From assembly GCF_900142245.1 (NCBI RefSeq), contig NZ_FRAG01000006.1, forward strand, positions 2,804 to 26,803: a stretch of 24,000 bases of DNA, written 5' to 3'. The DNA is from Paramaledivibacter caminithermalis DSM 15212. Lineage in GTDB: Bacteria > Bacillota > Clostridia > Peptostreptococcales > Caminicellaceae. How positions within the stretch are numbered: the stretch's first letter is position 1; the number at the start of each line of letters is the position of its first letter. Position numbers and translations under genes: made by a program. The notes under the pieces were generated by a model. That model saw nothing but the letters and a program-made list of their open reading frames with translations, searched no databases and was not told the DNA's origin. This document shows, piece by piece, positions 10,922 through 23,594 of the stretch.

Positions 10922-11275
10922 TTACTTAATTAACCTAAGTGAATATCTTCTTTCCAGATAAAGAATAAGCTCTTTAACCATATCATAATAATTTTTATTA
11001 AGCACACTCCAATTCCTATGATAATTTGCAAAAATATATCTTTTTACACTTAAAGAAGGTATATATGGATTACCTAAAAAATCCGTTTGATCCTTATACA
11101 AGCATAACCTTGTTATTCTACCTTTCCCTACAGTTAAATCATCTGGATTAATACCATTATCTACTGCATCCTTATGTACCAATGCAAACCATGCATAATT
11201 GTCTATAGCACCTTTAATGTATCCATATTTATTACAATTCTTATCAATTTTTATATCATAATTATAATCAGACAT
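10922..11275 (-). CDS. Hypothetical protein (117 aa), family not recognised
   Basis: Clean ORF with a GGAGGGG SD 5 nt upstream of the ATG. Soluble, no motif I can name. Confidence 0.55.
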   Translation of the reverse strand: MSDYNYDIKIDKNCNKYGYIKGAIDNYAWFALVHKDAVDNGINPDDLTVGKGRITRLCLYKDQTDFLGNPYIPSLSVKRYIFANYHRNWSVLNKNYYDMVKELILYLERRYSLRLIK

Positions 11276-11410: not shown

Positions 11411-11443
11411 AAACAAAAAAAGAGCAAGTGATTAGCCTACTCT
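11411..11443 (-). terminator. Rho-independent terminator at the end of the agr-like operon
   Basis: Minus strand reads AGAGUAGG-CUAAUCA-CUUGCUCU (8 bp including 2 G-U pairs) followed by UUUUUUUGUUU. Confidence 0.6.
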
Positions 11444-11465
11444 TTCTCCTATATTATACAATTTT

Positions 11466-11509
11466 GCACATAAAACGTGATGAAATCTCCTTCATCACGT
11501 TTTATGTGC
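11466..11509 (-). other. Perfect 19-bp stem / 6-nt loop hairpin spanning the agrB stop codon
   Basis: GCACATAAAACGTGATGAA-atctcc-TTCATCACGTTTTATGTGC with no mismatch. The agrB TAA (11502-11504) lies in the 5' arm on the minus strand. No U-tract follows (AAAAUUG). Confidence 0.6.
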
Positions 11510-12077
11510 CGAATAATAAATTGACAAACCCAAATATTGTAGCTAAAGTCATCATATCACTAATTTCTTGAAATCCAAATAAATATATGATTATATTAAT
11601 AGTAAATATTATTTTGATAGCCTTTAAGCCATTAGTTTTAAAATAACTTTTTTCTTCCTTAGATAGTCTTTTATTTATGTTATCTATAGTCCCAATTTTT
11701 ATCCCTATTATATAACTTATCATATAGACTAATAGTAATAAAAAGATATTAAAGTCAATATGATATCTTACAAATAAAGCAATCATAGGAACTACTATGC
11801 TTAACATGAGACATATCATACTGTTTTTTGTATGATATCCTCCAAAATATCTTCTTATAAATATAAATGTAACTGTATAAACCACTACCGATGAAAAAGC
11901 AGCCAATTTAGGAATTAATATATTTAGAAGCATTGAAATTACGAATAAACTAACAATCCATATTAGATAATTCATTAAAATCTCAACTGAATATATTAAT
12001 ATCTCTTCCCTTTCTCTATCAGATTCACTTATTAAAGCCATGTATTTACCTAGCTTTACAGCAATATTATGTATCAT
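11502..12077 (-). CDS. agrB: AgrB-family membrane endopeptidase (AIP precursor processing)
   Basis: 191 aa and polytopic. The motif RRYFGGYHTKNSMIC has His and Cys 7 residues apart, as for catalytic H77/C84 of S. aureus AgrB. Its ATG overlaps the stop of the upstream regulator (ATGA). Confidence 0.85.
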   Translation of the reverse strand: MIHNIAVKLGKYMALISESDREREEILIYSVEILMNYLIWIVSLFVISMLLNILIPKLAAFSSVVVYTVTFIFIRRYFGGYHTKNSMICLMLSIVVPMIALFVRYHIDFNIFLLLLVYMISYIIGIKIGTIDNINKRLSKEEKSYFKTNGLKAIKIIFTINIIIYLFGFQEISDMMTLATIFGFVNLLFGT

Positions 12078-12793
12078 TTATTGGATACCTTCTTTTCTTC
12101 TATAAGCTCCTTTTCCACCACATCAACAAACTTACTTAGAAATTCTATGTTTTTAGGTCTTGTTACAAAACCTAATTTACCAAAGGAATTATTATCAAGG
12201 TTTTGTATGATGTTATTTAAGGATCGTCTAATAGATGATTTTTTTTCATCATTTTGATTAGAGAGGGTATCATATACCCTGCTTTTAACCTCCTCATCAT
12301 ACAAAAGCACCTTTATCATTTTTTGAAAAAGGGATTTTTGTTTTAGATCGCATCTATTATTTAATATTTCTTCTGTTTTATCATTTACCTTATTATCTCT
12401 GGAGATGTAGATATCTCTTTTTACAATGTTTAAAACCATATTGAGATCTTCAAATCTCATAGGCTTACCGACCTTATAATCGTAGTATTTCATACGCTTA
12501 ATAATTTCACTGTCATGTAGAAACGTTATTAATATAATAATTGGTCTATATTCTTTTAAAAGATATCCTACCAGCTTATCTCCTTCTAAATAAGGCATAA
12601 AATGGTCAGTTATAATGATATCAAAATCGCATGTTTTCAATATTGCTTCTTTTGCCTGATTGGGGTTATAAAAACCTACAGGGATAATGTCCTTATGAAA
12701 TTCTGATATATATTCACATACAATATCTACTTGCTCCTTAAAGTCATCTATTATAGCTGCTTTAATCTTAATATGATCACCCTCCCTTCTCAA
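12074..12793 (-). CDS. Response regulator, Spo0A paralog (REC domain plus Spo0A_C-like DNA-binding domain)
   Basis: The REC domain has all key residues: IIDD, IIITD(HFMPYLEGD), ILIT and GKP. The C-terminal roughly 105 aa aligns by eye to the Spo0A C-domain. SSIRRSLNNIIQNL matches [20 protein letters not shown] matches FGYT, and RPKNIEFLSKFVD matches KPTNSEFIAMVAD. TTG start with an AAGGAG SD 5 nt upstream. Confidence 0.8.
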   Translation of the reverse strand: MRREGDHIKIKAAIIDDFKEQVDIVCEYISEFHKDIIPVGFYNPNQAKEAILKTCDFDIIITDHFMPYLEGDKLVGYLLKEYRPIIILITFLHDSEIIKRMKYYDYKVGKPMRFEDLNMVLNIVKRDIYISRDNKVNDKTEEILNNRCDLKQKSLFQKMIKVLLYDEEVKSRVYDTLSNQNDEKKSSIRRSLNNIIQNLDNNSFGKLGFVTRPKNIEFLSKFVDVVEKELIEEKKVSNK

Positions 12794-12841: not shown

Positions 12842-12973
12842 TTATTTTCTTAATGCTTTAGGTATTTCTGGTTCGCCAAATACAATTGAACATGCATTGC
12901 TTTGAACCATAGTAGATGCAAATGTGATTAAAGCTGGTACCAATGCCAATAATGCTTTGTTAAGCTTTTTCAT
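12842..12973 (-). CDS. agrD: AgrD autoinducing-peptide precursor (43 aa), absent from the ORF track
   Basis: Hand translation gives MKKLNKALLALVPALITFASTMVQSNACSIVFGEPEIPKALRK. It has an amphipathic leader, Cys plus 4 residues (CSIVF), then an E-P-E-I-P-K-x-L tail like DEVEVPKEL of S. aureus AgrD. An AAGGAGGTGA SD lies 6 nt upstream. The start overlaps the upstream gene by 14 nt. Confidence 0.85.
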   Translation of the reverse strand: MKKLNKALLALVPALITFASTMVQSNACSIVFGEPEIPKALRK

Positions 12974-14186
12974 CCTTTGTCACCTCCTTATAGGGTATTT
13001 GTATATCCAATGCAAAGTATCTGTCCTTGATGATTCGATACCTTGCATTTTCGCCGATAAGGGAAAGCTTTATATTCTCCATATTCAAGTCATGCTCAAG
13101 TATTTTTATCAGCCTTCTTTTTTCTAAGTCATTTAATATAATTTTCAGATTAAAGCTTATATATTCCCTTAGCTCTAAAGTTACAATTACATTTTCAAAG
13201 CTTATTTTCCTCAAGGCAGAATATAAAAGTATCTCCAACATAAAATAAAGCTTCTTAAAATCATAGTCTACAAAACCCAGCCTCTCATCTATGTGATAAT
13301 AAAAGTTTTTATTTGATTCCTTCATGCTTTTAAGGATTTCCTCTATCTTTTCAATTTCAATAACATTTAAATATGTCTTCATTAAATTCAAATAATAATA
13401 TATTTCATCTTCTGTGCTATTATATAAAAGGGTCTGAAAGGTGCTTTGGGGACTATTTAATATCTCCTTGTAATTCTCATATAATATGGTTCTACTCAAT
13501 AAAACCATAGTTACTATCATAAACACTATCGTCTCTATGAGGAATATTTGTATATTTATAAATATTTTTCTAGCATCAATATCATATAAGTATATCTTGA
13601 AAAAAATTTCATTATAATTCATACTAAATAAATAACCGCTTAAAAGCAGAGCTACTATAACATGAAAGGTTATCTTCTTCGATTTTGATAATAGATTCCA
13701 TGGTAAAGTCAATAGTTTATTTGATTTTAAATTAAATTTTAAGCATATAAATACTGTTATTATTTGAAAAATCCTAGTGGGAAACGAAAATATAAATCTA
13801 TACTGAAATAGATTACCAGAATATTTAATTTTTAACAAATTAATAATAGGTGTAGAAAAAGTTTCATAAAATATTAAAGCAAATACCGCTAGATATCCAC
13901 CTAATAAAGCTTGTCTAACATTAAGTCTAAAAACAACTTTAAGAATAAGAATATAGTATAATAAAGATATAATACTCATTATTATAAAACTATCTATATT
14001 TTTCCTTATTATGATTAATACTAAAGGAAAAACAATGGAAACCAATAATGTTTTAATTACAAACCTTAAACTAAACTCTTTAGATTTAAAAATATTTCCC
14101 TTGATTAGAATTATTCCTATTAAGCATGTTAATAGAACCTCGGGAGTACCGACAATTATTGCATCAATTAAACTCATATTTTCCAT
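12960..14186 (-). CDS. AgrC-like polytopic membrane sensor paralog 2, kinase motifs not recognisable
   Basis: 6-7 TM helices by eye plus a cytoplasmic domain of about 180 aa. That domain resembles the AgrC/HPK10 DHp+CA layout but lacks the H-box, N-box Asn and G1/G2 glycines. Start trimmed to ATG 14186 (MENMSL) after a GGGGAGAG SD. Confidence 0.65.
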   Translation of the reverse strand: MENMSLIDAIIVGTPEVLLTCLIGIILIKGNIFKSKEFSLRFVIKTLLVSIVFPLVLIIIRKNIDSFIIMSIISLLYYILILKVVFRLNVRQALLGGYLAVFALIFYETFSTPIINLLKIKYSGNLFQYRFIFSFPTRIFQIITVFICLKFNLKSNKLLTLPWNLLSKSKKITFHVIVALLLSGYLFSMNYNEIFFKIYLYDIDARKIFINIQIFLIETIVFMIVTMVLLSRTILYENYKEILNSPQSTFQTLLYNSTEDEIYYYLNLMKTYLNVIEIEKIEEILKSMKESNKNFYYHIDERLGFVDYDFKKLYFMLEILLYSALRKISFENVIVTLELREYISFNLKIILNDLEKRRLIKILEHDLNMENIKLSLIGENARYRIIKDRYFALDIQIPYKEVTKDEKA

Positions 14187-14279
14187 AGGTCTCTCCCCAA
14201 TCCTCATAGGTTTATGTCAATATATTCATTGATATATTCTATAAAAATTATTAAATCTTTACTATACATTTTTGGGGAA

Positions 14280-15509
14280 TTAATTTTTTATATGTTTTTC
14301 CAAATCATTATATGGTACACATATTTCCAACTCAAAATATTTATCTTTATTAATCCGATATTCTGCACCTTCCTCTACAATGGAAAACTTTAAATTCTCC
14401 ATATCTAAGTCTTGTTCAATTATCTTCAATAACTTTCTTCTTTCTATATCATTCAATATTATTTTTAAGTTAAATCCTATATTATCCTTTAATTCCAAAG
14501 TAATTATTGTATTCTCAAAGGTAACTTGTCCTAATACCTTATCTTTAAACATTTCCAATAAAAAATATATTTTTTTAAAATTATACCCTGTCATCTCTAA
14601 GCTTTTATCAATATGGTAATAAATATTTTTATTGGCTGCCTTCATTTTTTTTAGTAATTCTTCTACCATATCAATACCTATGACATTAAGGTAATCCTTA
14701 GTTAGACTTAAATAATAATATATTTCTTTTTCCGTACTGTTATATAATAATCTTTCAAAGGCCTTCCTTGGACTGCTTAGTATATCCCTATATTCTTCAT
14801 ACTGGATGGTTCTGCTCAATAAAATAATTATTACTATCATAAATGCAATAGTTTCTATAAAAAATATTTGTATATTAAAAAATATTTCTTTGACATCGAT
14901 ATTGTATAAGTCTATCTTCATATAAGTCTCAGTGTAGTTGGCACTGAATAAATAGGTACTAACAATTAATAGTACTATGGAATAGAATGTCTTTTTCTTT
15001 GACTTTGACAATAACCTCCACTGAATATTTAAAATTTCACTTGATTTTAGGTTGAATACTAAGCATATGAATAATGCAACTATTTGAAATATCCTAGTAG
15101 GTATGGTAAATAAAAATCTATAATCAAAGTAATAGCCACTATATTTTATCCTCATCAAATTCACTATTGGAGTAGACAAGGTCTCACAAAACAATATAAT
15201 AAGCATTACTAAATAACCACATATTAAAGCCTGTCTATAATTAAATTGAAAAACAAATCTTAAAGTAGCAATTATAAATAACATGGATATACATCCTATT
15301 GCTATAAAACTATTTATATTTTTTCTAATGATAATTAGAAGTAAGGAATAGATAGTGGAAGTCAATAATATTTTTAATATAAGTTTTAGATTATAATCTT
15401 TAGACACAAATATATTTCCATTTATTAAAACAATACTTGTTAAATAGACTAAGAAAACCTCAGGAATACCTACAACTATTACATCCAGTAACTTTACATT
15501 ATCTTCCAT
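14280..15509 (-). CDS. AgrC-like polytopic membrane sensor paralog 1, kinase motifs not recognisable
   Basis: Roughly half the residues are identical to the 12960..14186 product over the full length, with the same architecture. Start trimmed to ATG 15509 (MEDNVKL) after a GGGGGAAG SD. The track start at 15590 adds 27 residues with no SD. Confidence 0.65.
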   Translation of the reverse strand: MEDNVKLLDVIVVGIPEVFLVYLTSIVLINGNIFVSKDYNLKLILKILLTSTIYSLLLIIIRKNINSFIAIGCISMLFIIATLRFVFQFNYRQALICGYLVMLIILFCETLSTPIVNLMRIKYSGYYFDYRFLFTIPTRIFQIVALFICLVFNLKSSEILNIQWRLLSKSKKKTFYSIVLLIVSTYLFSANYTETYMKIDLYNIDVKEIFFNIQIFFIETIAFMIVIIILLSRTIQYEEYRDILSSPRKAFERLLYNSTEKEIYYYLSLTKDYLNVIGIDMVEELLKKMKAANKNIYYHIDKSLEMTGYNFKKIYFLLEMFKDKVLGQVTFENTIITLELKDNIGFNLKIILNDIERRKLLKIIEQDLDMENLKFSIVEEGAEYRINKDKYFELEICVPYNDLEKHIKN

Positions 15510-15673
15510 AGGTCTTCCCCCAATATTCATTCTTATATACTTATATTTTACAAAAAAATGTAATTTCCCACAAGATGTTTTCTTCGACATTATTTTACAT
15601 TTTTCACGTCCTTGTTATATCAAGCCTTTCACGATTTAATAATATGCTATAGGAATTTAAGTAAAGATTTTAA

Positions 15674-15844: not shown

Positions 15845-15873
15845 AAACAAAAAAAGAATAGGCCCTTAGCCTA
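15845..15873 (-). terminator. Weak terminator of the small 15866..16012 ORF
   Basis: Minus strand reads UAGGC-UAAGG-GCCUA followed by UUCUUUUUUUGUUU. The stop codon sits in the loop. Confidence 0.4.
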
Positions 15874-16012
15874 CACTTTCTTCTTTTCTTAGAAATTCTA
15901 TTTTATTTTTTGTTAATTCATTATACAGCTTTAAATCAATTTTTCCATTTTCAAGCAATTTATCGCAAAGCTCGATAAAATTTTCTACAATTTCAACTAA
16001 TTCTTCATACAT
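15866..16012 (-). CDS. Hypothetical small helical protein (48 aa)
   Basis: ATG 16012 (MYEELVEIVENF...) is preceded by GGAGGTAGAAAA, while the track start at 16054 lacks an SD. Charged and helical-looking; no motif recognised. Confidence 0.4.
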   Translation of the reverse strand: MYEELVEIVENFIELCDKLLENGKIDLKLYNELTKNKIEFLRKEESVG

Positions 16013-17354: not shown

Positions 17355-17384
17355 ATCAAAAAAAGGCAAAATTATTTGCCTTTT
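17355..17384 (-). terminator. Rho-independent terminator of the LiaF-like gene
   Basis: GGCAAA-uaau-UUUGCC is flanked by A and U runs. The minus strand continues UUUUUUUGAUUUG. It overlaps the stop codon at 17383-17385. Confidence 0.7.
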
Positions 17385-18267
17385 ACTCAACCCTCACATC
17401 AAATTTTCCAATACCTGTATCCACATCTATTTCCAGCTTCTTTTCAGCATTTTCGTAGTTCGGTGATATATAACTATCCCCTGATTTATACCATCCCAAT
17501 CCGCTAATATTAGTGTTTTTTATACCTCCATCAAAATCAGCCTTTACTCCAAGATTCTCTGGTATAGTTATCTCAAGATTTGATATTCCCCCATCAATAT
17601 CAACCTTTGTGTAATCTTGTTTATCTCCAAATTTTAAATTCAAATTAGATACTCCCATATCCATATCAAGCTTTGATATTTTTAGGCTGCTAAAATCCAA
17701 AGTCCCATTTATTGCACCAGTATCTATATCTATGTCCCATAATACATTATTATTTAAATTAAAATTGTAATCATAGGATTTCTTGTTATTTAATTTTATA
17801 AAATCAATTTCTTGTTCAATATTTATATCTACTTTAGTTTTGTCATCACTAAATCTTACTTGTCTTTTTACATTTGAACTAGATACCTTTGCTTTTATGA
17901 GATTATCATTTATTGAATTTATTTTTATATTTCCTCCTGCTAATTTAAGCCTTAATTTCCCAATACTAGTTTTTTCGTGAGTTGCTTGAACAAAATTGGG
18001 ATTCGAATTAAAAGTAATATCATTTTTCCATTTATAGTCTCCATAAAAACCAAGCAGAATTACAATAATAAAAAATATTCCCCATGTAATATACCTGATT
18101 AAATTATTAGCTCTAAATATTATATTTATCCCTATCACTATAAGTATTAAAGGCCATAGCCTAAAGATTCCATAAAAAGACCAATTTATAATCCCAAGGT
18201 TGCTCATAAGCAAAAAAACACCTATGAAGATTAGTATAAATCCACCTAAATTACCCCTGCTTTTCAA
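17383..18267 (-). CDS. LiaF-like / DUF4097 (toast-rack) membrane protein
   Basis: N-terminal LiaI-LiaF-like TM hairpins (GFILIFIGVFLLMSNLG, WPLILIVIGINIIF). The C-terminal beta-rich repeat region has DxDxG(I/V)xN periodicity. TTG start with a GGGAGGA SD 8 nt upstream, 1 nt after the pspC-like stop. Confidence 0.7.
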   Translation of the reverse strand: MKSRGNLGGFILIFIGVFLLMSNLGIINWSFYGIFRLWPLILIVIGINIIFRANNLIRYITWGIFFIIVILLGFYGDYKWKNDITFNSNPNFVQATHEKTSIGKLRLKLAGGNIKINSINDNLIKAKVSSSNVKRQVRFSDDKTKVDINIEQEIDFIKLNNKKSYDYNFNLNNNVLWDIDIDTGAINGTLDFSSLKISKLDMDMGVSNLNLKFGDKQDYTKVDIDGGISNLEITIPENLGVKADFDGGIKNTNISGLGWYKSGDSYISPNYENAEKKLEIDVDTGIGKFDVRVE

Positions 18268-18268
18268 G

Positions 18269-18709
18269 CTAATTTTCCTCCCTTTTCTTAAATATTATAA
18301 ATGCTCCAAGGATTATTAAAGCAACTGGCCATAATTTACCTAAATCAAACCAATAAACGTACTTCTTAATTAAAAATAAAACTCCTAAAACAATTAATAT
18401 CGTTCCTATAAGAATCCTATTTTTATCATTCTCTCCATTTTCTTTCCCATAATAATGCTCATATTTGTCATCATAATTTTTAGCACCAACTACGTACTCA
18501 TCATCATTTAATGCAGTATTATAGCTTGATCCTTCTGGAAAAACTATAGCACAGATTATATAGGCAATAATACCCGCTCCCCCCATAAGAGTAAATATTA
18601 CCCATGCAATTCTTACTAGTGACGTATCAATTCCAAAATAATCTGCAATTCCTCCACATACTCCCGCAAGTATCCTATCATTTCTTGAGCGATATAATCT
18701 TTTTGACAT
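18269..18709 (-). CDS. PspC domain-containing membrane protein
   Basis: RLYRSRNDRILAGVCGGIADYFGIDTSLVRIAWVIFTLMGGAGIIAYIICAIVFP is a canonical PspC domain. A C-terminal TM hairpin follows. Confidence 0.85.
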   Translation of the reverse strand: MSKRLYRSRNDRILAGVCGGIADYFGIDTSLVRIAWVIFTLMGGAGIIAYIICAIVFPEGSSYNTALNDDEYVVGAKNYDDKYEHYYGKENGENDKNRILIGTILIVLGVLFLIKKYVYWFDLGKLWPVALIILGAFIIFKKREEN

Positions 18710-20809: not shown

Positions 20810-21496
20810 ATGAATATACTTGTATGTGATGATGATAAAGAAATAGTTGAGGCCATAGAAATATATCTAAAAAATGAAGGTTACAACATCTTTAAAGCTA
20901 ATAATGGATTAGAAGCATTGAAAATATTAGATAATTCAGAAGTTCATCTTATTATAATGGATATTATGATGCCCAAGATGGATGGTATGAAGGCTACAAA
21001 TAAAATTAGAAAAACTAAAAATATTCCAGTTATAATGCTTTCAGCTAAATCTGAAGACATGGATAAAGTAATGGGCTTAAATATAGGAGCTGATGATTAT
21101 GTTACTAAGCCCTTTAATCCATTGGAGCTTATAGCTAGAGTTAAATCTCAGCTTAGAAGGTATACAACCCTCGGAAGCTATACCCAAACAACAGGAGTTT
21201 ATAAAACTGGTGAATTAATCATAAATGATGAGAGTAAAAAAGTAACTGTAGATGGTGAATTAGTTAAATTAACACCTATAGAATATAAGATACTTAAATT
21301 TTTGACAGAAAATGCTGGTAAAGTATATTCCATAGAACAAATATATGAAAATGTTTGGCAAGAGCCAGCATATAACCCAGAAAACACAGTGGCTGTGCAT
21401 ATTAGAAGAATAAGAGAAAAAATAGAGATAAATCCAAAGAAACCAAAATACTTAAAGGTGGTGTGGGGAATTGGCTATAAAGTGGAGAATATTTAG
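20810..21496 (+). CDS. OmpR-family DNA-binding response regulator
   Basis: REC domain (DDD, IIMDIMMP, MLSA, TKPF) plus a winged-helix trans_reg_C domain (LTPIEYKILKFL, VHIRRIREKIE, VWGIGYK). Confidence 0.93.
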   Translation: MNILVCDDDKEIVEAIEIYLKNEGYNIFKANNGLEALKILDNSEVHLIIMDIMMPKMDGMKATNKIRKTKNIPVIMLSAKSEDMDKVMGLNIGADDYVTKPFNPLELIARVKSQLRRYTTLGSYTQTTGVYKTGELIINDESKKVTVDGELVKLTPIEYKILKFLTENAGKVYSIEQIYENVWQEPAYNPENTVAVHIRRIREKIEINPKKPKYLKVVWGIGYKVENI

Positions 21497-23594
21497 CCAT
21501 TCATTAATAACAAAAATTATTGTTTTTATAATAACTATAGCTTGTTTTTCTTGTAGTATAACAATGTTTATAAATCTTATAGAGATAACAAATAGTGACA
21601 TAGATATAGTTTTTGGAGATAATTATTATAGTAGTCATGGATATATAAATGAATTGTACAATTTAACTAGATATCTATCCCAATTAATTATAACTTATAA
21701 AAGCCAAGATTACATATTATCTGGTGGAACCGTTACTGAAAAAGACTTTGAAATAGAAAAAGAAATTCTTTTTTCAGAGTTCCAAAATAATTCAAATAAA
21801 TATAATCCTAATTGGTCCCGTGAAAAAAATTATGAAGCATTTGAAAGGTATGCCGCCAATAAAATATTAGAAGAAAAAAATAGATTGATTCAGGAGGATT
21901 TAAAAAAGTTTAAATCATATTTGAAAAAATTGCAAAACTTAAATGGAATCTTATATTATATAAGCGATGGTGAAAATGAATTTACCAACAGTCCAAATAA
22001 ATCTAAAGAATATTTTAAAAAATATCCTTCTTATATAGTATTTGATAAATCTGATGAAATAATATTTCCAAATGAAGTTAAAAATAATCCAGAATATAAT
22101 TGGATTAAAAACAATATTGCACAATTAGTTCAAGAAGACTATGTTATGTATATTGCATTTATTGAAGGTCCTTTGAATGATCGAATTAAAGAATGGGAAA
22201 AAAATAAAGCAGCTGTCACTGAAACCTTATATATAATAGCATACTTACTTGCAGGCTTATTGATTTCTTTTATATATTTAGTATTGGTTATTGGCAGAAA
22301 GTCATTTAATGATAATAAGCTTCATTTTAATTTCATAAATAAGCTCTACAATGATATCAATATTGTCCTGTGCTTAGGCATTATAGCATCATGGTTTGGA
22401 GCTATGGGATTTGTATTTGATAATGATGTATATGAAATCATACTTCCTATAACTGCTATATTAGGTACTTTGGGATTAATATTAGTCCTATCATTAGTTA
22501 AACATATTAAAAATAGGACACTCATTAAGCATACATTAGTTTATACTATATTGAGCAGATTTTTTAGTTTCATAAAGTCCATCTATAATAGTGGTAGTGT
22601 TGGAATAAAAATTATATTAATAGTAATAGGTTATCCCTTAATAATAGGATTATCTTTCTTTATATTTGTACTAGGTCTATATAATGTCATACTAGTTATC
22701 CTAGCATTGTTTATTTCTCCTACAGCTATAGGAATAGCATTATGGTTATCACTCAAAAAAGTAAAAGAATTCAATGCAATAAAGGAAGGTGTAGAAAAAA
22801 TAAAAAATGGATATATACATCATAAAATAGACGTATCTGGAAATGGAGAGTTTGGGAAGCTTGCTTCTAATATTAATAGCATAGCCGATGGATTAAATAA
22901 AGCAGTTGACAATGAACTTAAGAGTGAGCGATTAAAAACAGAGCTTATTAGCAATGTATCCCATGATATAAGAACTCCCCTTACTTCTATAATAACCTAT
23001 ATAGATTTGTTGAAAAAGGAGGGCTTGACCTCAGAAAACTCTGAAAAATATTTAGGTGTATTGGAAAAAAAATCTTTGAGATTAAAGTTTTTGACAGATG
23101 ACCTATTTGAAGCTTCCAAGGCATCTAGTGGTGATATTCCTGTTAATATTGAAAAAATAGATATAGTCTCTCTGCTAACCCAAGGTATGGGTGAATTAGA
23201 TGATAAGATAGCTTCTTCGGGATTAAAATTTAAGTTTAACTATCCAGCAGAAAAGGTATTTGTTAAAGCCGACGGTAAGCTCCTATGGCGTGTAATAGAA
23301 AACCTTATGTCAAATATCTTTAAATATGCCCTTAGAAGCTCAAGAGTTTATATCGATGTCCTTGATTCAGACAATAGCGTTTCTATTGTTTTTAAAAATA
23401 TATCTTCTTACGAACTTAACATAAATGCAGATGAGTTAATGGAACGTTTTAAACGTGGAGATGAATCTAGAAACAGTGAAGGCAGCGGTCTTGGACTATC
23501 AATTGCAAAAAGTCTTGTGGAACTACAGAATGGTGAATTCAGTATAGAAATTGATGGTGACTTATTTAAATCTATAATTGTTCTGCCTAAATAG
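21471..23594 (+). CDS. Sensor histidine kinase (large extracytoplasmic domain, multi-TM block, HAMP, HisKA, HATPase_c)
   Basis: H-box SNVSHDIRTPLTSI, N-box LMSNIFKYA and G-box GSGLGLSIAKSLVE. TTG start at 21471 has AAGGTGGTG 7 nt upstream and overlaps the regulator gene end. The first in-frame ATG would fall inside TM1. Confidence 0.9.
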   Translation: MAIKWRIFSHSLITKIIVFIITIACFSCSITMFINLIEITNSDIDIVFGDNYYSSHGYINELYNLTRYLSQLIITYKSQDYILSGGTVTEKDFEIEKEILFSEFQNNSNKYNPNWSREKNYEAFERYAANKILEEKNRLIQEDLKKFKSYLKKLQNLNGILYYISDGENEFTNSPNKSKEYFKKYPSYIVFDKSDEIIFPNEVKNNPEYNWIKNNIAQLVQEDYVMYIAFIEGPLNDRIKEWEKNKAAVTETLYIIAYLLAGLLISFIYLVLVIGRKSFNDNKLHFNFINKLYNDINIVLCLGIIASWFGAMGFVFDNDVYEIILPITAILGTLGLILVLSLVKHIKNRTLIKHTLVYTILSRFFSFIKSIYNSGSVGIKIILIVIGYPLIIGLSFFIFVLGLYNVILVILALFISPTAIGIALWLSLKKVKEFNAIKEGVEKIKNGYIHHKIDVSGNGEFGKLASNINSIADGLNKAVDNELKSERLKTELISNVSHDIRTPLTSIITYIDLLKKEGLTSENSEKYLGVLEKKSLRLKFLTDDLFEASKASSGDIPVNIEKIDIVSLLTQGMGELDDKIASSGLKFKFNYPAEKVFVKADGKLLWRVIENLMSNIFKYALRSSRVYIDVLDSDNSVSIVFKNISSYELNINADELMERFKRGDESRNSEGSGLGLSIAKSLVELQNGEFSIEIDGDLFKSIIVLPK

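Follow-up and report, generated by a model that had tools for sequence, protein, structure and literature searches.

Candidate kinase-less peptide receptors in the sensor position of an agr-type operon of Paramaledivibacter caminithermalis

What kind of protein occupies the sensor position of an agr-type operon in which no kinase is recognisable? The question is raised by a stretch of 24,000 nucleotides of contig NZ_FRAG01000006.1 of Paramaledivibacter caminithermalis DSM 15212 (hereafter the window, meaning this whole stretch), whose low G+C content (25–35%) is of the Clostridia type. Five tightly packed genes lie here on the minus strand between two terminator-like hairpins, in the order X1, X2, agrD, regulator and agrB (Table 1), and this copy of the module is chromosomal, between pgsA/valS and speE. 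The original prediction took the adjacent genes X1 and X2 (paralogs 1 and 2) for tandem AgrC-like receptors that look like pseudokinases; the product of X2 is identical (100%) to a ‘hypothetical protein’ of P. caminithermalis. The three-part layout of the agrD product and the presence of agrB in the operon put X1 and X2 in the usual sensor place of an agr operon. Our preferred reading, to which we give a probability of about 0.5, is that both are kinase-dead, histidine-kinase-derived receptors for the autoinducing peptide (AIP) that signal by protein contact.

The two proteins are collinear end to end with 242/415 identical positions (58%, E = 3e-168, BLASTP), so the predicted tandem of full-length paralogs, about half identical by eye, stands at its predicted coordinates. 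An AlphaFold2 model of X2 built on an alignment of 71 sequences reaches a mean pLDDT of 91.5 and supersedes an earlier run on 14 close sequences (pLDDT 56). It predicts seven transmembrane (TM) helices at residues 6–29, 40–63, 67–84, 90–121, 130–150, 168–200 and 209–232+, where six or seven, as in AgrC, had been expected; TM7 extends into the cytoplasm to residue 244 and is followed by a Pro kink. The cytoplasmic part, residues 233–408 or about 176 amino acids against a predicted 180 or so, is modelled as juxtamembrane helices 246–255, 259–273 and 278–291 leading into an alpha/beta domain at 295–397. Within that domain, strand 295–299 and helix 311–325 precede strands 332–339 and 343–350, helices 353–365 and 367–378, and strands 382–387 and 391–397. 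Inside the outer half of the modelled TM bundle lies a conserved polar cluster (E16, E108, P113, R138, Q141, N190, Y191, N211, Q213 and E218 in X2 numbering).

The predicted structure places the cytoplasmic part among the histidine kinases. All but a few of the top 50 Foldseek matches in the PDB are CA or DHp+CA structures of histidine kinases (VraS, DesK, HK853, VanS and AgrC), with DesK represented by many entries that align over 170–190 columns. The best matches are VraS 4gt8 (E = 2e-4, TM-score 0.65), VanS 8dvq (0.66) and AgrC 4bxi (0.60), the last joined by 6e95, all target-normalised. For the predicted model, Foldseek gives a probability of 1.0 to the CA domains of VraS, VanS, DesK, NtrB and AgrC, with target-normalised TM-scores of 0.56–0.66, and matches of the model in a viral structure library are histidine kinases too. 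Because Foldseek returns histidine-kinase CA or DHp+CA structures nearly exclusively, the AgrC/HPK10 layout of DHp and CA proposed originally is upheld at the level of a predicted fold, and a CA-type (Bergerat/GHKL) alpha/beta sandwich topology for the C-terminal domain is supported by the model. At the level of sequence, neither X1 nor X2 has a Pfam or NCBIfam match at E ≤ 1, and a PDB sequence search with a profile of 14 close homologs gives matches at chance level only. As a positive control, HisKA and HATPase_c are both detected by this Pfam search in the window's genuine kinase (21471–23594).

The catalytic elements of this fold are gone. There is no His at residues 232–296 of X1 or X2, and no cytoplasmic column carries His or Gly in at least 30% of sequences, counted over the juxtamembrane part of 71 family members and over the whole cytoplasmic part of the 23 full-length ones; an HD-type H-box after the last TM helix is thus missing, as foreseen. 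The His of the YYHID motif (H298) had been singled out as the conserved cytoplasmic His. It sits in strand 1 of the CA-like domain, and close orthologs have N or Y instead, so this part of the prediction falls. By secondary-structure order, helix 311–325 is the N-box helix, with E or D at column 318 in 18/23. At the column of the N-box Asn (Asn339 of LDNAIE in AgrC), X1 and X2 have Ile and Met, and only two of the 23 full-length members have Asn, in the relic-like readings IDNL and FDNI, so the proposed replacement of the Asn in both copies is borne out. The segment between strands 3 and 4, the place of G1, F, G2 and the ATP lid, is 24–32 amino acids long with 0–2 Gly (n = 23) and is modelled as two directly joined helices; its AgrC equivalent has about 41 amino acids, including GEGRGLG (sequence of 4BXI/6E52). 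The G1 and G2 boxes are therefore missing and the lid is shortened across the 23 proteins, just as had been read from the two paralogs. The column equivalent to the G1 Asp is acidic (D/E) in 22/23. None of the 71 family members has a HisKA or HATPase match in Pfam, and the alignment of orthologs shows the His, Asn and Gly motifs to be lost across the family, save for the Asn of the two members just named.

Selection has kept what remains. Nei–Gojobori ratios of nonsynonymous to synonymous substitution (dN/dS), taken between the genes of the window and orthologs from Wukongibacter, are, for X2, 0.15–0.25 in the TM domain, 0.07–0.09 in the juxtamembrane hairpin and 0.05–0.10 in the CA-like domain, and for X1, 0.21–0.26, 0.19–0.29 and 0.10–0.21, respectively; the ratios are rough because dS is near saturation, and all are still far below 1. 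Since dN/dS is well under 1 in all three domains, the genes are under purifying selection and not in decay. This agrees with the earlier argument for selection over recent decay, the CA-like domains spanning 0.05–0.21. Among close species, the TM domain of X2 diverges faster (72% identity) than the cytoplasmic part (80–87%). A kept kinase fold, lost catalytic residues and purifying selection together support the view that X1 and X2 are histidine pseudokinases.

The two paralogs belong to a family of 78 clusters at 50% identity, collected by an exhaustive hidden Markov model search of 1.84 billion representatives, for which neither Pfam, NCBIfam nor PHROGs holds a model (both paralogs and 71 members searched). 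Sixteen of the 78 cluster representatives are about 390–460 amino acids long. Some 54 have only 256–313 residues and align with the family profile from position 1 to about 280, so that they comprise the TM domain and hairpin without the CA-like domain. These short forms retain the seven TM helices and the hairpin motif RTxxYExYKxxLxxP...S..E..Y, and the juxtamembrane hairpin is the best-conserved cytoplasmic element, kept in all members including those that lack the CA-like domain. The functional core of the family therefore shifts to the TM domain and hairpin. Long and short forms are intermingled when compared by sequence, so the CA-like domain has probably been lost repeatedly.

Twelve loci were compared: the window, two Wukongibacter genomes (L001 and L002) and nine metagenomic contigs from across the family (L003–L011). 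Complete short forms are directly followed by agrD in L004, L006, L007 and L008. Tandem X pairs occur in three lineages, namely the window, L005 and L007. In the window and in L007 the two members of the pair are each other's closest relatives, which makes the duplications recurrent and apparently independent; the pair of L005 is very divergent. A single old split behind all tandem pairs was considered and rejected on the same mutual relationships.

The neighbours of the X genes are conserved as well. An AgrD-like open reading frame (ORF) of 36–49 amino acids lies directly 3′ of the last X gene in 12/12 loci, usually overlapping it, agrB is found in each of the seven loci with a long enough contig, and the regulator is present in ten. 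No gene for a kinase domain was found in any of the twelve. The window AgrD, MKKLNKALLALVPALITFASTMVQSNACSIVFGEPEIPKALRK, consists of an amphipathic leader, a core SNA-CSIVF and a tail GEPEIP. Its C-terminal pattern, ...SNACSIVFGEPEIPKALRK, combines a Cys and four ring residues with an acidic tail of the E-P-x-x-P type, and ORFs of this pattern recur in 11 related loci. Conservation across loci extends to the leader, the Cys and the tail G-E-(P/T)-x-(I/V)-P but not to the four ring residues, which give the rings CSIVF, CCSGY, CALGY, CSYMA, CSRTF, CASMA, CSLTY, CIILT, CFAAH, CGWMW, CGGSW and CTAGM, the first three of which distinguish three close species. Pattern and context together mark the 43-residue ORF as a putative AgrD precursor. 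The linked AgrB (Pfam AgrB, E = 7e-24), with His82 and Cys89 invariant in six family-linked AgrBs, is predicted to be the membrane cysteine peptidase that processes it. Variation in the ring contrasts with an unusual conservation of the three or four residues that precede its Cys, (V/I)(Q/S)(S/A)NAC, which points to a conserved exocyclic tail or leader-cleavage site.

The regulator begins with a receiver domain. Its N-terminal 145 amino acids match Pfam Response_reg (1e-5) and, far below that model's cut-off, the Spo0A model TIGR02875 (1.4e-9). The best PDB matches of the receiver are Spo0A receiver domains (E = 1e-6 and 5e-5), and the five active-site residues D16/D17, D63, T90 and K110 are intact in the window regulator and in seven homologs. 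The helix-turn-helix-like C-terminal domain of about 100 amino acids aligns by eye with Spo0A 175–261 at an hhalign probability of 0.5%. It has no Pfam or PDB match, and the homologs likewise have no Pfam model there. As the C-terminal alignment is without statistical support, ‘Spo0A-like’ holds for the receiver only. Unlike AgrA, the regulator has no LytTR match. In L007 (302–601) and L008 (1257–1661), the neighbouring regulator consists of the C-terminal helix-turn-helix-like domain alone (99 and 134 amino acids), without a receiver. The regulator gene shares no canonical start codon with its Wukongibacter counterpart (window 12770–12793, minus strand; L002 8388–8460). In both, a strong Shine–Dalgarno sequence (GGGAGGG / AAGGAGG) is followed 5–7 nt on by ATT, which opens IKIKAAIIDD; this spacing suggests that the protein starts at ATT (232 amino acids) and not at TTG 12793.

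A regulatory site for the operon may lie just upstream of X1. About 95 bp there are conserved with the two Wukongibacter loci, and the sequence farther upstream is not. The conserved block holds the heptamer TGTCGAA at 15583–15589, two TGTAAAATA repeats and a candidate promoter with –35 TTGTGG, a 17-nt spacer and –10 TAAAAT. TGTCGAA, which we take to be the ‘0A box’ consensus of Spo0A, occurs once in the 24-kb window, where 0.61 occurrences are expected. A TGTCGAA-type box stands 74–98 nt upstream of the first X gene in 9/12 loci. It reads TGTCG(A/G)A on the coding strand, 77–98 nt from the first X start, in L003, L004, L006, L009, L010 and L011, and TGTCGAT in L001 and L002; the box of L005 is 207 nt upstream. 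No such box was found upstream in L007 and L008, the two loci whose regulator is the helix-turn-helix domain only. We infer that the box is the regulatory site of the operon, serving the operon's own regulator or the Spo0A of the host. An alternative reading of the upstream block, at 15527–15590 (minus strand), is a small ORF (MS.KT.CGK...FVK), in frame with X1 in the window. In Wukongibacter L001 and L002 this reading stops after 15 and 21 codons, and the changes are a mix of synonymous and nonsynonymous ones.

Several of the metagenomic copies have a phage-like setting. In L003, L004, L006, L009 and L011, the module lies directly 3′ of a DndB-like gene (430–447 amino acids) and an MrpR-type recombinase gene, a pair that matches phrog_5732 (E = 4e-66) and phrog_5830, ‘integrase’ (E = 1e-57). 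Genes for a PemK toxin, TPR proteins and integrases occur near the module in these loci, together with a P22-type antirepressor in L006 and TIR/SEFIR proteins in L011. The five loci resemble a recurring phage-like or integrative element with the agr-like module as its cargo. A scan of genome contigs found only the two Wukongibacter loci, tblastn of one family member against GenBank phages and PLSDB plasmids gave no match, and IMG/VR scans with two members found none, by a method that detects close relatives only.

On the receptor reading, AgrB would turn the 43-residue AgrD into a cyclic AIP with the ring C-S-I-V-F and an exocyclic tail ending in SNA. The peptide would bind X1 and X2, probably a homo- or heterodimer, in their 7-TM bundle, whose outer half carries the polar cluster, and a conformational change would pass to the juxtamembrane hairpin (RTxxYExYK...P...NS(T)xxE..Y). 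As X has neither a phospho-acceptor His nor an ATP site, its output would be contact and not phosphotransfer from X: it could bind, release or occlude the regulator, or gate the regulator's phosphorylation state, and the regulator would act on the TGTCGAA-containing operon promoter. The intact receiver of the window regulator is probably phosphorylated from outside the operon, for example by orphan Spo0A-type kinases or acetyl phosphate, with the receptor gating this step. A phospho-independent core is consistent with the many members that lack the CA-like domain and with the regulators of L007 and L008, which lack a receiver. The receptor reading is also favoured by the divergence among close species, whose AgrD rings differ and whose X2 changes faster in the TM domain than in the cytoplasmic part, and by the recurrence of the TGTCGAA-type box ahead of the first X gene.

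Several points weigh against this proposal. The receptor role, ligand binding, dimerisation and contact between X and the regulator are deduced from context. Aligned by hhalign with 12 staphylococcal AgrCs, the family reaches a probability of 30% on 69 columns, with a shallow AgrC profile. The N- and G-box mapping described above follows secondary-structure order and the family alignment and not a residue-level structural superposition. Conservation is slightly higher in the outer than in the inner halves of the TM helices (entropy 0.72 vs 0.93, p = 0.048), which runs counter to the hypervariable ligand side that staphylococcal AgrC would predict; a hypervariable extracellular TM side, as in the AgrC specificity groups, was not seen in this family. 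L005 contains two X genes, agrD and agrB without an adjacent regulator. Finally, the intact receiver means that some phosphodonor must exist, so a purely phosphorylation-free pathway is not established for the window locus.

Some of these observations feed the main rival to the receptor reading, in which X1 and X2 serve maturation or export of the peptide, as a leader peptidase cutting before SNA-C, an exporter or an immunity protein, and the kinase-like domain is a leftover. We judge this unlikely. It would account for L005, where the only genes are X, X′, agrD and agrB and the regulator is missing, and for a CA-like domain that is dispensable in most members. The polar Glu/Arg/Gln/Asn/Tyr cluster in the outer TM half, more conserved than the inner half, would also suit it, as would the conserved (V/I)(Q/S)(S/A)NAC before the ring Cys of AgrD as a cleavage or recognition site. 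Descent from a sensor-kinase fold and strong purifying selection on the CA-like domain, however, suit signalling better, no protease or transporter family is matched, and the element best conserved in the cytoplasm, the hairpin, is needless for an extracytoplasmic peptidase. In hhalign comparisons the TM domain has no homology to the linked AgrBs, and a relationship between the two was rejected on this result.

In a second and quite unlikely alternative, X1 and X2 are AIP-gated phosphatases or anti-kinases, whose hairpin docks on the receiver in the manner of a DHp or Spo0E-type hairpin and removes or protects the phosphoryl group that other kinases have supplied. Histidine kinases owe their phosphatase activity to the DHp domain, and neither the His nor hydrolysis of ATP is required for it. 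A hairpin conserved in every member, with or without the CA-like domain, would fit such a role, as would operons without a kinase and a Spo0A-like receiver whose active site is intact in 8/8 of the regulators that have one. This mechanism cannot work in L007 and L008, where the regulator has no receiver. HisKA, HisKA_3, SPOB_a and Spo0E-like signatures are absent from the hairpin even at E ≤ 10, and the His-adjacent phosphatase motifs (E/DxxT/N and DxxxQ) have no evident counterpart.

Continued participation in a phosphorelay is improbable. X1 and X2 would then recruit a separately encoded kinase, in the way that RetS works on GacS, rely on a nucleotide site of a non-canonical type, or serve a hetero-oligomer as its regulatory half, with a real kinase as the other. 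The receiver does need a phosphodonor, X pairs apparently arose independently in three lineages (window, L005 and L007), and an acidic residue is kept both at the G1-Asp column (22/23) and beside the N-box position (18/23). Against this, there is no His, no Gly-rich loop and no lid, most members lack the CA-like domain altogether, and none of the 12 loci has a conserved kinase gene nearby; the sole kinase of the window belongs to an OmpR/HisKA pair that is encoded on the opposite strand at a distance of 5 kb, beyond a set of unrelated genes. That X1 and X2 are decaying, functionless remnants of a former agrC is excluded: every catalytic motif is indeed gone, but neither reading frame is interrupted, dN/dS stays well under 1 in each domain, and the 78 clusters at 50% identity share conserved motifs and synteny.

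In the way it makes its signal, the operon follows the agr scheme. How close the presumed receptors stand to AgrC can be stated in two parts. What survives of the ‘AgrC-like’ label in the original prediction is architecture (7 TM helices, hairpin and CA fold) and context, and what does not is family membership; profile comparisons with staphylococcal AgrC showed no significant similarity. X1 and X2 share with AgrC the succession of polytopic sensor, helical hairpin and CA-fold domain, and are encoded with agrB, agrD and a response regulator. AgrC has an H-box His (FRHDYxN), an N-box Asn, G1/G2 and an ATP lid, and X1 and X2 are without all of them. HATPase_c_5, the Pfam family of AgrC, has no match in X1, X2 or 71 members. 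The hhalign comparisons covered whole-protein, TM, cytoplasmic and CA slices in local, low-mact and global modes, and the TM and CA slices alone score below 2% against staphylococcal AgrC. By Foldseek, the CA-like domain of X2 resembles VraS, DesK and VanS as much as AgrC. The partner of the AgrC system is of the LytTR-bearing AgrA type, whereas the X operon pairs a Spo0A-like receiver with a helix-turn-helix domain that has no Pfam model, and the gene order is X-X-D-R-B here as opposed to B-D-C-A in staphylococcal agr. X1 and X2 should therefore not be filed as AgrC; the likeness is one of architecture and context.

Non-catalytic relatives of histidine kinases offer nearer precedents for the signalling logic. 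DivL of Caulobacter is a histidine pseudokinase that lacks the phospho-acceptor His and binds a response regulator instead (PMC4211667, PMC5361649), and PsmA is another such precedent (PMC12963549). The non-catalytic logic of DivL is the model proposed here for X1 and X2. DivL is cytoplasmic or polar, with PAS domains, recognisable HisKA/HATPase sequence and a Tyr in place of the His; the X family differs in its 7-TM architecture, in having no detectable kinase sequence signature and, often, in lacking the CA domain. The plant subfamily-2 ethylene receptors are membrane receptors with a degenerate histidine-kinase domain that signal by protein–protein contacts. They resemble X1 and X2 in this logic alone, being eukaryotic and having another sensor domain and other partners. 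Spo0B is a soluble protein with a helical hairpin and a CA-like domain that does not bind ATP, and acts on Spo0A through a phospho-accepting His. It shares with the X family the pairing of a non-ATP CA-like domain with a regulator that has a Spo0A-like receiver, and differs from it in that X has no conserved His, has no SPOB_a/SPOB_ab match in Pfam and is membrane-bound.

Agr genes with an unusual complement or location have appeared elsewhere. The C. difficile phage phiCDHM1 reportedly carries agr genes including a conventional agrC kinase. It shares with the family loci the presence of agr-type genes on a mobile element, and differs in that the five loci described here carry the kinase-less X protein. 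In C. perfringens, the agr operon CPE1563-CPE1562-agrB-agrD has hypothetical genes co-transcribed with agrBD and no kinase (PMC2706048), and the peptide is sensed by a genuine kinase, VirS (PMC7492741). The agr1 locus of C. difficile is likewise agrBD without a cognate agrCA (PMC8534292). These kinase-less agrBD loci resemble the X operon in having uncharacterised genes beside agrBD. An incomplete literature search for a kinase-less AgrC-type receptor, or for an agr locus with a Spo0A-like regulator, found no description.

Agr-type peptide signalling at these loci thus probably employs a kinase-derived but kinase-less receptor family, which sets it apart from conventional agr. A more specific picture is possible, and we offer it tentatively: an undescribed form of agr-type quorum sensing, in which a 7-TM protein without a catalytic domain, often just the TM domain and a hairpin of about 45 amino acids, reads the cyclic peptide and directly holds or releases a regulator that combines a Spo0A-like receiver with a helix-turn-helix and binds 0A-box-like sites, the module having been spread among Clostridia by phage-like elements. 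If so, the module could let the elements or their host couple cell density to decisions under Spo0A control, such as sporulation and lysogeny, and the phage-like settings and 0A-box-like element suggest links among peptide signalling, mobile elements and the master regulator of sporulation. Many Firmicutes have agrBD without a cognate agrCA, and the sensing of their peptides has long been a gap, as with C. difficile agr1, C. botulinum and C. perfringens. The X family supplies a concrete candidate for a non-kinase AIP receptor, with a compact operon of five genes, a defined peptide and a promoter that is likely to be autoregulated. As a membrane receptor it would join the very few bacterial histidine pseudokinases on record, DivL and PsmA among them, and its members form a full evolutionary series, from those with a degenerate CA domain to those that have lost it altogether.

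Table 1 Features of the X1–agrB operon in the window and of the compared loci; coordinates of L001 to L011 are those of the respective locus.
Feature	Locus	Coordinates	Strand	Remarks
X1 (paralog 1)	window	14280–15509	–	409 aa; ATG with GGGGGAAG (ribosome-binding site) just 5′; CA-like domain about 14307–14630; Wukongibacter orthologs
X2 (paralog 2)	window	12960–14186	–	408 aa; start agrees with NCBI model
X2 TM domain	window	13491–14186	–	residues 1–232
X2 juxtamembrane hairpin	window	13311–13490	–	residues 233–292; motif RTxxYExYKxxLxxP...NS(T)xxE(I/L)xxY
X2 CA-like domain	window	12987–13310	–	residues 293–400
agrD	window	12842–12973	–	43 aa, putative; start overlaps X2 3′ end; AAGGAGG ribosome-binding site; pre-Cys motif
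Regulator	window	12074–12793	–	239 aa from TTG, or 232 aa from ATT 12772; receiver and helix-turn-helix-like domain
agrB	window	11502–12077	–	191 aa; start overlaps regulator stop (ATGA)
Intrinsic-terminator-like hairpin	window	11415–11449	–	closes operon; terminator scan
Terminator-like hairpin of upstream gene	window	15858–15874	–	5′ boundary of operon; terminator scan
Promoter/leader region upstream of X1	window	15510–15605	–	conserved block with TGTCGAA box
agrD ORF with pre-Cys motif	L001	8214–8345		
agrD ORF with pre-Cys motif	L002	8214–8345		
agrD ORF with pre-Cys motif	L003	3986–4120		
agrD ORF with pre-Cys motif	L004	5081–5212		
agrD ORF with pre-Cys motif	L006	7845–7979		
TGTCGAA-type box	L001	5606–5612		
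TGTCGAA-type box	L002	5613–5619		
TGTCGAA-type box	L003	2657–2663		
TGTCGAA-type box	L004	4157–4163		
TGTCGAA-type box	L006	6916–6922		
TGTCGAA-type box	L009	5907–5913		
TGTCGAA-type box	L010	4298–4304		
TGTCGAA-type box	L011	5903–5918		
DndB-like/recombinase pair	L003	308–2588		
DndB-like/recombinase pair	L004	1766–4091		
DndB-like/recombinase pair	L006	4571–6829		
DndB-like/recombinase pair	L009	3533–5832		
DndB-like/recombinase pair	L011	3563–5829		

Around the operon, a perfect 9-bp inverted repeat, ACGTGATGA-aggagattt-TCATCACGT, lies right after the agrB stop (11455–11500, minus strand) and before the hairpin 11449–11415. The 117-residue product of a gene 3′ of the operon (10922–11275, minus strand) has a weak match to DUF7678 (E = 6e-4), and the gene is not kept beside the module elsewhere. 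Upstream of the operon are two sets of genes that seem unrelated to it, a cell-envelope stress pair of LiaF-like and PspC-domain membrane proteins (17383–18709, minus strand) and a conventional OmpR/HisKA two-component system (20810–23594, plus strand).

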